This document shows, piece after piece, positions 3,001-6,000 of a stretch of DNA of 41,119 nucleotides. The stretch is from a virus: the UHGV virus genome UHGV-0135785, one strand, 5' to 3'. Position 1 is the first letter of the stretch. Every line of letters begins with the position of its first letter. A program made the position numbers.

Positions 3001-6000
3001 GAAGGCTGAGGCGAGGGCGTTGCTCCCGTCTCTACCAAAAGAGGAGGGATATACGTTCATTCCAAACGCATTTCTGGAAAAGCTTCTCAAAGAAGACATA
3101 TCCGTAAGTCAGTTTAACGATGTTCTTAAGGTCTTTCGTCAAGGCAGGTAGTTATGAGCAATACAGCAAAAATCTACGATTTCAGCGCCGCACACGAGCG
3201 CAGGAGCAACAGGATGGAGAACCAGAAAACTGGTTACATTCCGTTGTACCGGAGCATTCTGAAACAGTCATGGGCGAAAGATGTTTATCTTCGCACCCTG
3301 TGGGAAAACCTTCTCCTGAATGCCGCCAGAAAGCCATACAAAGCGAATTTCAAAGGTCATGAATGGCATCTGCAACCCGGTCAACTGGTTGTGACAGCAG
3401 CTGATTTAGGTCTTCAGTTATGCGACAGGCATGGCAAGCCAGCAAGCCGCGATCAGGTTGAGCGGATGCTTCAGGTTTTTGTGAAAGAGGGGATGATCTC
3501 CATTGATGGAGAGAAGCAAAAAGGTCGTGTGATCACCATCACAAATTACCATGAATATGCTCAAAAAATGGACAATTCACCCGCACATGAAGCCGCACAA
3601 ACAACCGCACATGATGCCGCACATGATGAAGCCAGTAATGGCGCGGCTTTCAGCGTACATGCCACACATGAAAGCGCACATGAAGCCGCACAAACAACCG
3701 CACATCATGAACAAGAAGGTATTAACAAGAATATAAATAATACCCCCCTACCCCCCAATGGGGGAGGCGATGGGCAGGTTAAACCTGAACGTCGCAAGGC
3801 AGAACGAATCGACTACGAATCCTTCCTGAACGCCTACAACACCGAAGTCGGTGACAGACTTCCACATGCTGTTGCGGTCAACGAGAAACGCAAACGCCGC
3901 CTGAAGAAAATCATCCCGCAACTGAAAACGCCAAACGTGGACGGTTTCAGAGCGTATGTCAGGGCGTTTGTGCATCAGGCCAAGCCGTTTTACTTCGGAG
4001 ACAACGACACGGGCTGGACGGCAGATTTTGATTACCTGCTGAGGGAAGACTCGTTAACGGGAGTTCGGGAAGGGAAGTTTGCAGACAGGGGGATTGCATG
4101 AGACAGGATATCGAAGCGAGCGTTATCGGCGGTCTGCTGATTGGTGGATTAACACCAACCGCCAGTGACGTTCTGGCAACGCTGGAGCCGGAAGCGTTTT
4201 CAATTCCGCTCTACCGGAAAGCCTTCGAGGTTATCCGCAAGCAGGCGCGAAACAGAAACCTAATCGACGCGCTGATGGTTGCCGAGGCGTGCGGAGAGGA
4301 GCATTTCACGTCAATCCTGATGACCAGCAAAAACTGCCCGAGTGCCGCAAACCTGAAGGGATATGCCGGAATGGTCGCGGATAACTATCACCGCCGTCTG
4401 GTGCTGGAAATCATGGATGAAATGCGTGAACCAATCCAAAGCGGAACCATCGACGCATCGAGTCAGGCGATGGATGAACTTGTAAAGCGTCTCTCAGCCA
4501 TCAGAAAGCCCCGTGACGAGGTTAAACCGGTACGCTTAGGGGAAATCATCACTGACTACACCGACACACTTGACAGGCGTCTGAGGAACGGAGAAGAGTC
4601 AGATACCCTGAAGACCGGAATCGAAGAACTTGACGCCATCACCGGAGGGATGAACGCAGAAGACCTGGTGATAATCGCTGCTCGTCCTGGTATGGGGAAA
4701 ACCGAGCTGGCGCTGAAGATTGCCGAAGGCGTTGCAAACCGCGTTATTCCTGGTTCTGACGTCCGGCGCGGAGTGTTGATTTTCTCGATGGAAATGAGCG
4801 CATTGCAGATTGCAGAGCGAAGCATTGCCAACGCCGGGAGGATGTCGGTTAGTGTGCTGCGAAATCCTGCAGCGATGGATGACGAAGGCTGGGCGCGCGT
4901 TGCTAACGGCATGAGTCAGCTTGCGGATTTGGATGTATGGGTAGTCGATGCCTCGCGGTTATCGGTCGAAGAAATACGCTCAATCGCAGAACGGCACAAA
5001 CAGGAAAATCCAAACCTGTCACTCATCATGGCGGATTATCTTGGACTGATTGAGAAGCCGAAAGCAGACCGCAACGACCTCGCAATTGCTCACATCTCCG
5101 GAAGCCTGAAGGCGATGGCGAAAGACCTGAAAACGCCTGTTATCTCCCTGAGTCAGCTTTCGCGCGATGTTGAGAAGCGACCAAACAAACGCCCGACAAA
5201 CGCAGATTTGCGTGATTCAGGAAGCATTGAACAGGACGCAGACTCAATCATCATGCTCTATCGGGAAGCGGTATATGACGAGAACAGTAGCGCCGCGCCA
5301 TTTGCTGAAATCATCGTGACGAAAAACCGTTTTGGCTCGCTTGGTACGGTTTACCAGCGATTCTGTAACGGACACTTTGTTGCATGTGACCAGGATGAGG
5401 CCAGACAGATTTGCACAGCATCAAATGCACCTGCTGCGCGTGGCAGACGATATGCACAAGGGGCTGACGTATGAATAAAAAACAATTAGCCATTCTCGAA
5501 AAGGCATGGGATGCACAAATATCATGCGCTTTGAAAGAACAGGCACTACCAATAATCCAGACCAAATCGAAAATAGCCAGGCAGTTATGCGATGACGGAT
5601 TCCTGAACGAAGTTGAGATTACGCGCCAGATGGTAACGTTCAAAGGGTATGAGATAAATCATCATGGTATAGCGGCGTATTGCTCCCATCTTCCTGATGA
5701 CGTTGACATTGATGAAATGGAAAGGGAGATGAAGCAATGACCATCTACATTACTGAGCTAATAACAGGCCTGCTGGTAATCGCAGGCCTTTTTATTTGGG
5801 GGAGAGTAAATCGTGGTTGAGTTGATTTTCTCTGCATTGAGGATTCTCGGTGCTATGTGGATGGTGTCGACGTTCATTGTGGTTGTCGGAAGTTTTGTCC
5901 GGTTGGTAGGCGAAGGTAAAGACCTGGTGGGTGTGCTTTTCGGTAGCATTTTCCTGTGGGTGATTATCGGTGTTATGCCTGTTGTCGTTGCAAAAGTGGC

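Follow-up and report, generated by a model that had tools for sequence, protein, structure and literature searches.

A probable replication origin built from two arrays of 12-nucleotide repeats within the O-like initiator gene of a P22-like lambdoid phage

The UHGV virus genome UHGV-0135785, which we analyzed as one stretch of 41,119 nucleotides (nt) and refer to here as the window, is, as judged from its sequence, an HK620/CUS-3-like, P22-like lambdoid phage of Escherichia coli. We conclude that the region from approximately 3556 to 3770, which lies within the O-like replication initiator gene where that gene codes for the interdomain linker, is very probably the replication origin of this phage. 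The region holds two arrays of 12-nt direct repeats, an AT-rich tract, and an inverted repeat formed by a C tract and a G tract, in that order. An original prediction, made from the DNA alone, had placed a candidate origin here, and it is supported by the constraint on the repeats as DNA, by the co-variation of repeat type with the type of initiator, and by an equivalent stretch annotated as the origin of P22. In every sequence-level feature that we tested, the element behaves as a lambdoid origin of the kind that lies inside the initiator gene. It stands outside the narrow plan of four dyad iterons found in lambda, P22, and HK97.

Anatomy of the repeats and their constraint as DNA

Our repeat search recovered a single family in a 12-nt register, running from 3569 to 3723, and the iteron array of the original prediction proved to be real. 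Between 3581 and 3709 there are eight 12-nt units and one degenerate copy, with the core C-GCR-CAT (Table 1). When the position of a unit is given as that of its conserved C, the units stand at 3582, 3594, 3606, 3618, 3654 (the degenerate copy), 3663, 3675, 3687, and 3699, and the spacings between them are, in order, 12, 12, 12, 36, 9, 12, 12, and 12 nt. A 27-nt segment that had been said to occur twice is indeed repeated exactly (3586 to 3612 and 3679 to 3705), and the duplication extends to 31 nt (3582 to 3612 and 3675 to 3705). The paired pattern CGCACAWN5CGCACAW, with at most one mismatch, has 6 matches in the window, all of them within 3582 to 3705, against 0.11 expected, and none of 100 shuffles reached 6 matches. 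The single 8-mer, again with at most one mismatch, is not enriched over the window as a whole (35 occurrences versus 34 expected), so the signal lies in the clustering of the units. We found no inverted repeats within the arrays, and the units have no internal dyad symmetry.

As had been predicted, the repeats fall in the linker of the initiator, between the end of the Phage_rep_O domain at amino acid 132 and the beginning of the C-terminal homology at approximately amino acids 190 to 206. The repeat period is four codons. All units lie in one reading frame, and the linker peptide is therefore itself a tetrapeptide repeat (x-x-Ala-His); translation bore out the expected His- and Ala-rich composition. 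A repetitive peptide of this kind raises the question of which is conserved, the protein or the DNA that encodes it.

The molecular record of related phages and prophages speaks to this question at two depths. Our deep set consisted of 36 loci from one-genome-per-species bacterial assemblies, and the usable sequences of this unit type numbered 30: the window, the Klebsiella phage Mulock, a Yersinia phage, and 27 of the 36 loci. Xenorhabdus, Yersinia, Enterobacter, Brenneria, Sodalis, and Proteus are among the genera represented, and the N-terminal domains are 65 to 87% identical to that of the window. In the codon alignment of these relatives, the C that precedes GCR is present in 30 of 30 sequences at all six shared units, where it occupies the third position of a codon for Ala, Ser, Thr, Pro, or Gly. 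The Ala codons of the units, pooled over 200 units, are GCA in 133 cases, GCG in 41, GCT in 4, and GCC in none, while elsewhere in these genes usage is roughly even; the His codon is CAT in 163 of 170 units versus 74 of 127 elsewhere. Mean third-position information is 1.37 across 3559 to 3735 and 0.83 in the N-terminal domain (Mann-Whitney p = 1e-7).

The same alignment delimits what is conserved. Positions between the cores vary freely in the deep comparison, and only the 7- to 8-nt cores persist within the unit consensus n-C-C-G-C-R-C-A-T-n-n-n; the unit tail GA(T/A)G, which the original prediction had included in the repeat, is not conserved. Arrays of relatives contain either 3 or 4 units. 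Conservation of third positions extends beyond the arrays: the sliding mean of third-position information climbs to 1.6 at the A-tract block to their left, in which several codons have third positions identical in 27 to 30 of the 30 sequences, and third positions of a box within the spacer are conserved in 26 to 29. The codons CAT GAA CAA that open the AT-rich tract are identical in all 30, and the GAA that follows (3715) is kept in 27.

Our shallow set comprised 63 distinct close haplotypes from viral contigs, which are near-identical copies. The number of units is constant in all 63. Polymorphic sites are fewer in the cores (12 of 64) than between them (14 of 28; p = 0.005), and they affect 1 of 37 sites in the AT-rich tract and 15 of 33 in the spacer.

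Individual units bear traces of recent change. At 3664, in the opening unit of the right array, the window has CCACACAT (CACACAT, with Thr171), where nearly all of the approximately 62 close relatives have CCGCACAT (CGCACAT, with Ala); the window thus carries a derived change in one core. In the relative L020, six clustered substitutions at the equivalent of 3685 to 3697 convert CCGCACAAACAA to a GCGCACATGAAG-like unit, which looks like gene conversion between neighboring units.

Initiator type, repeat type, and mosaic structure

If the units are binding sites of the initiator encoded around them, different initiators should be accompanied by different units, and the family offers a natural comparison. 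Initiators whose N-terminal domains are 51% or less identical to that of the window have other 12-nt units in the same two-array layout: 3 to 4 units, a spacer coding for (P/A)S(N/A)GAA, 3 to 4 further units, and an AT-rich tract beginning EQ. The unit core is C-GAT-RA in L004, L119, and L120, AG-GTA-A in L121 and L124, GWCGAR in L005, and GAT-ACA in L125, the N-terminal domain of which is 78% identical to the C-GAT cluster. There are thus four to five clusters of N-terminal domains, each with its own 12-nt unit. These domains differ between subfamilies at amino acids 97 to 106 (SRDQVERML versus SPQAVTRMI and others). The linker peptides of the subfamilies are unrelated (AHEAAQTT, PDEPCDKPSD, EVTKQVSNEV, and VEGSDEPPVE), and the layout is constant, which argues that the architecture of the DNA has been kept and not the peptide. 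The distance from array to array takes values of 69, 81, or 93 nt across the family, and the exact array-to-array repeat reaches 34 nt in L004 (31 nt in the window). This co-variation is what would be expected if the units are the predicted binding sites of the initiator itself.

The spacer behaves differently from the units. Its box, CC-AGY-AAT-GGC-GCG-GCT, with the peptide (P/A)SNGAA, is common to L002 to L005 and L090 to L125, including members with wholly different units, and it matches neither the DnaA nor the IHF consensus. The box nearly equals the reverse complement of the AH-type core; we considered it as an inverted copy of a unit and rejected that idea, since it recurs in subfamilies with unrelated units. 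One of the loci just compared has a curious label. L004 (OR850084.1) is a 2.7-kb contig deposited as 'Staphylococcus phage SA 1298 Kay' and flagged UNVERIFIED_ORG, and it encodes an enterobacterial lambdoid O gene with an HK97-type C-terminal domain and C-GAT-RA units; the record is almost certainly mislabeled or a contaminant.

Searches of phage genomes with tblastn divide the initiator into two parts. Amino acids 190 to 315 are 97.6% identical to HK97 gp54 and 60.5% identical to P22 gp18, amino acids 3 to 195 are 76% identical to the Klebsiella phages Mulock and Kp4856-1, and amino acids 3 to 143 are 74% identical to a Yersinia phage. A like N-terminal domain, together with its arrays, is joined in Mulock and in the Yersinia phage vB_YenM_29.18 to a C-terminal domain of lambda type, after which comes a lambda-P-like gene; in the window, HK97, and P22, the C-terminal domain of the present type precedes a DnaB-like helicase. 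One type of N-terminal domain and array is therefore joined to two kinds of C-terminal module. The point at which the window switches to the HK97-type module lies at approximately 3721, inside the AT-rich tract, which indicates that the N-terminal domain and the repeats are inherited as one module. The second module consists of the right half of the AT-rich tract, the C/G tract, the C-terminal domain, and the helicase. Lambdoid origins are known to follow this pattern.

A set of small circular records touches on the same junction. Approximately 18 such 'plasmids' from Salmonella Infantis are listed in PLSDB, with a repressor, cro, cII, a small open reading frame (ORF), and an O gene that is cut off. 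In two of them, L126 (NZ_CP148879.1; 5,555 bp) and L127 (NZ_CP148796.1; 5,873 bp), the O gene breaks directly after the C/G tract (..TPLPPNGGG), at the equivalent of position 3771 in the window. L126 has CCGCACAT-type units and L127 has C-GAT-RA-type units, and the O remnant is fused to identical unrelated DNA in both. These circles retain the N-terminal domain and the entire predicted origin and have neither C-terminal domain nor helicase. They may be genuine circles, of satellite or dv-like type, or artifacts of assembly; we rejected the idea that they are natural mini-replicons proving origin function, since the O gene is truncated.

The origin reading, known systems, and alternatives

The anatomy of the region, the homologies of its genes, the constraint on the cores as DNA, the co-variation of units with N-terminal domains, and the mosaic junction are direct observations. 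On the model of lambda O and P22 gp18, the N-terminal Phage_rep_O domain would bind the 12-nt units, presented as two direct arrays of four with a 33-nt spacer between them. The resulting nucleoprotein complex would destabilize the adjoining AT-rich tract, the C-terminal domain would recruit the DnaB-like helicase of the phage itself, and host primase and polymerase would then follow. It is from these homologous systems that we infer binding, unwinding, helicase recruitment, and origin activity.

The parallel with the lambda origin that the original prediction had drawn holds in part. Both systems have a homologous Phage_rep_O N-terminal domain, both have the origin midway along the initiator gene, where the linker is encoded, and both show the order of repeats, purine-rich AT tract, and inverted repeat. 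The parallel fails for the sites themselves. Lambda has four sites of 18 to 20 nt (~19 bp) with internal dyads, the spacing of which (20, 24, and 23 nt) places them in different reading frames, whereas the direct units of the window, eight or nine in number, measure 12 nt, have no dyads, and are divided between two arrays on either side of a conserved box. The helicase partner also differs, being a DnaB-like helicase in the window and the P loader in lambda. P22 (genes 18 and 12) and HK97 (gp54 and gp55) resemble the window in the C-terminal domain, in the C/G tract coding for TPLPP(N/K)GG, and in the adjacent DnaB-like helicase. Their AT tracts likewise hold two 14-nt repeats, and the GenBank record of P22 annotates a rep_origin over the equivalent stretch, including the C/G tract. 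In contrast to the window, P22 and HK97 have four dyad iterons of 18 to 22 nt with start spacings of 20, 24, and 23 nt, as does lambda, and their N-terminal domains were not picked up by tblastn with the initiator of the window.

Direct repeats without dyads are familiar from the iteron origins of plasmids of the pSC101, R6K, P1, and RK2 type, where they serve as initiator sites beside an AT-rich unwinding element. Plasmid iterons are approximately 17 to 22 bp long, lie approximately two helical turns apart, and stand outside the rep coding sequence, and their initiators come from other families. The window shares with them the dyad-less direct repeats and the AT-rich element and differs in the size, spacing, and location of the repeats and in the family of the initiator. 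The closest published parallel that we found is phage L, also a P22-like phage with short repeats in its initiator gene: gene 18 of L is reported to contain six imprecise 11-bp repeats, TGTCCAACGGA, which were proposed from sequence alone to be its origin, and lambda, P22, and L are each described there as having repeats of their own within the initiator gene (bioRxiv 10.1101/2020.10.05.325894). Phage L differs from the window in unit sequence and in initiator type, and two arrays around a conserved spacer are not described for it. The replication regions of the Stx (Shiga toxin) phages 933W and P27 are, according to another study, highly similar to that of lambda, with six iterons of which four are strongly bound, and extra iterons lengthen the O linker in lambdoid Stx phages (PMC7466680). 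These phages have a different N-terminal domain subfamily and a different unit from those of the module described here.

Several observations weigh against an origin at this place. In the close haplotypes, polymorphism is greater in the repeat region than in the N-terminal domain (19% of sites in the cores versus 7%); the constraint on any single core is therefore incomplete, and change is tolerated. The units lack the dyads of lambda, P22, and HK97 iterons, and for initiator sites 12 nt is an unusually close spacing. Between 3501 and 3820 we found neither a DnaA box, under strict or relaxed criteria, nor the IHF consensus. The hairpin that the C/G inverted repeat could form as DNA has a folding energy of -7.5 kcal/mol, with z = 0.2 relative to shuffles. 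The N-terminal domain and the arrays are physically adjacent, and part of their co-variation may therefore reflect linkage rather than co-adaptation. We found no paper and no GenBank feature on this type of origin.

An explanation at the level of the protein has to be weighed against this background. The repeats could be a tandem (x-x-Ala-His)n low-complexity element, possibly metal-binding or a flexible linker, that arose by in-frame duplication, the true origin being elsewhere. The period of exactly four codons and the repetitive peptide suit such an element, as does the conservation of Ala-His as amino acids in the 30 relatives, and hypervariability among close relatives is what disordered linkers show. 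A protein feature does not explain the fixed synonymous choices, in which one C is invariant over codons for five amino acids, GCC is never used, and CAT is nearly universal. Other subfamilies, moreover, exchange Ala-His for PDEP.., EVT.., or VEGSDE.. and yet keep the 12-nt two-array layout, and the adjacent AT tract is invariant at the codon level. We consider the protein explanation very improbable. Within the view that the DNA is what matters, the motifs might serve another function in cis, as sites for other phage or host regulators, as an mRNA signal for translation of O, or as a recombination hotspot for the exchange of modules. That unit type varies with the N-terminal domain of the initiator itself is difficult to reconcile with this idea, as is the correspondence of position and order (repeats, AT tract, inverted repeat) with the experimentally defined origin of lambda and the annotated origin of P22; nor is there any promoter-like site in 2800 to 4300. 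It draws some strength from the clustering of the mosaic junction and of the truncation breakpoints of related elements in this region and from the apparent gene conversion between units in one relative, and the sharing of the spacer box by subfamilies with different units implies that something besides unit-specific recognition acts on the box. Another cis function in place of an origin has a slim chance.

The origin might also lie here with a larger recognition element, either an array of 36 to 48 nt or the spacer box, of which the 12-nt units would be mere substructure. Long exact repeats between arrays, in the window as in L004, and the conservation of the box over unit types are what this would predict. 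Since only the 7- to 8-nt cores survive in the deep comparison, units per array differ between relatives, and the box is polymorphic in close relatives, we give it hardly any weight. More ambitious than the origin reading that we favor is a composite one, in which the region represents a distinct class of lambdoid origin unlike the O-some of lambda: two in-phase arrays of single-face 12-nt sites would be occupied by the initiator as monomers or as filaments, the arrays would be bridged over the family-wide spacer box, with either a host factor or some conserved part of the initiator reading that box, two in-frame initiator isoforms might exist, one perhaps regulating the other, and the period of four codons would force site specificity and the linker peptide of the initiator to evolve together. 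As a whole this composite picture is unlikely, and we offer it tentatively.

Flanking elements, gene context, and distribution

Coordinates of the elements and of the neighboring genes are collected in Table 1.

Table 1. Features of the predicted origin and its gene context in UHGV-0135785
Feature	Coordinates	Strand	Basis or remark
c2-type repressor	1535-2185	minus	
cro	2266-2451		
cII/c1	2473-2856		
Small ORF, 90 amino acids, between cII and O	2879-3151	+	phrog_2519, function unknown
O-like replication initiator gene, 315 amino acids	3154..4101	+	Pfam Phage_rep_O, phrog_345
N-terminal Phage_rep_O domain, coding region; presumed reader of the 12-nt units	3211..3549	+	N-domain clusters match unit types
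Alternative-frame ORF, 61 codons	3551..3736	+	By-product of CATG-rich repeats, not a gene
A-tract block GCTCAAAAAATGGACAATTCACC, directly left of unit 1	3556..3580		Marks where the block of conserved third codon positions begins on the left
Left array, four 12-nt direct units CCGCACATGAAG, CCGCACAAACAA, CCGCACATGATG, CCGCACATGATG	3581..3628		
Spacer between arrays, 33 nt	3629..3661		Family-wide box and degenerate unit
Spacer box GCCAGTAATGGCGCGGCT, peptide ASNGAA	3631-3648		
Degenerate unit GCGTACAT (CGTACAT)	3653-3660		
Right array, four 12-nt direct units CCACACATGAAA (CCGCACAT in relatives), GCGCACATGAAG, CCGCACAAACAA, CCGCACATCATG	3662..3709		
AT-rich purine-skewed tract, presumed DNA-unwinding element	3706..3742		GC content, conservation
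C-tract/G-tract inverted repeat CCCCCCTACCCCCCAATGGGGGAGG, codes for TPLPPNGGG	3743..3767		Within the annotated rep_origin of P22
C-terminal domain, coding region	3769..4098	+	phrog_345 positions 187-295
DnaB-like replicative helicase gene, P22 gene 12 type	4098..5474	+	Overlaps the O stop codon

The AT-rich stretch that had been expected after the repeats is pronounced. Its G+C content is 22%, versus 46% in the window, which ranks it in the bottom 0.5% of the 37-mers there, and purines make up 70% of the top strand of the tract. It contains two repeats spaced 14 nt apart, ATGAACAAGAA at 3707 and ATTAACAAGAA at 3721 (repeat family D3). The C-tract/G-tract palindrome of the original prediction is present as sequence; we rejected its hairpin as a significant structure, stability being no better than that of shuffles, and retain the palindrome for its conserved sequence alone. 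BHUENT3 has it too, ahead of an unrelated C-terminal region, and it is likely the right edge of the origin and part of the HK97/P22-type module. Between 3501 and 3820 there is also one GATC (3531) and one Fis-like palindrome (3559), both uninformative. The two terminator-like matches in our promoter and terminator scan are at chance level, and with promoter-like sites lacking as well, we rejected a promoter or terminator inside the origin. The alternative-frame ORF exists as predicted, and stop codons break its frame in most of the 30 relatives, which makes it an artifact.

The repressor, cro, cII, O-like, and DnaB-like genes follow one another in lambdoid order. In the initiator, Pfam PF04492 (Phage_rep_O) matches amino acids 20 to 132 (E=3.4e-15; 56.8 bits against a cut-off of 28.7), and phrog_345 ('replication initiation O-like') matches across the full length; the initiator has no sequence match in the PDB. 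The helicase matches Pfam DnaB_C (8.9e-78) and DnaB (4.5e-13) and phrog_19.

The module of N-terminal domain and origin is present in 286 of 5,426 complete E. coli genomes, in many Stx2a-converting phages, and in prophages of Klebsiella, Yersinia, Xenorhabdus, and other Enterobacterales. None of the GenBank records that we examined annotates an origin for it, and those of CUS-3 and Kapi1 have neither an origin nor a repeat feature. An origin inside the initiator gene is a textbook principle; the 12-nt two-array form is apparently without published description, as the texts returned in part by our literature search describe neither this unit nor this layout, and the studies of Stx phage replication regions that we consulted make no mention of iterons for non-lambda types. 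Replication of Stx phages governs the dosage of the toxin gene, and knowledge of where and how this replicon fires would therefore be useful for work on phages of Shiga toxin-producing E. coli and for compatible phage-derived vectors. Matched initiator domains and 12-nt sites form a natural series in this family, which suits it to deciphering the recognition code of O-type initiators, and the family also presents a clear instance in which constraints on protein and on DNA overlap.

Two further observations concern the beginning of the initiator gene. The last approximately 35 residues of the small ORF upstream of it bear a weak similarity to the beginning of a lambda/P22-type Phage_rep_O domain, with a Pfam E of 0.048 that does not reach the cut-off; the Kapi1 record also remarks on this motif. 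This tail may be the scar of an O gene displaced on the arrival of the present N-terminal domain and origin module. Within the O-like gene itself, a second peak of third-position conservation lies at 3196 to 3258. It includes an AGGAG at 3201 to 3205 (codons Arg18-Ser19), present in every one of the 35 family members where we could locate the motif, at a distance of 8 nt from codon 21 (ATG at 3214). That codon is GTG in four members (L005, L098, L110, and L112), and since only ATG or GTG occurs there, it remains capable of acting as a start even where the amino acid has changed. These features suggest a second in-frame isoform of the initiator beginning MENQK, the start chosen by the annotators of JEP4. 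The first 20 amino acids of the initiator resemble the N terminus of lambda O, and both starts may therefore be used.

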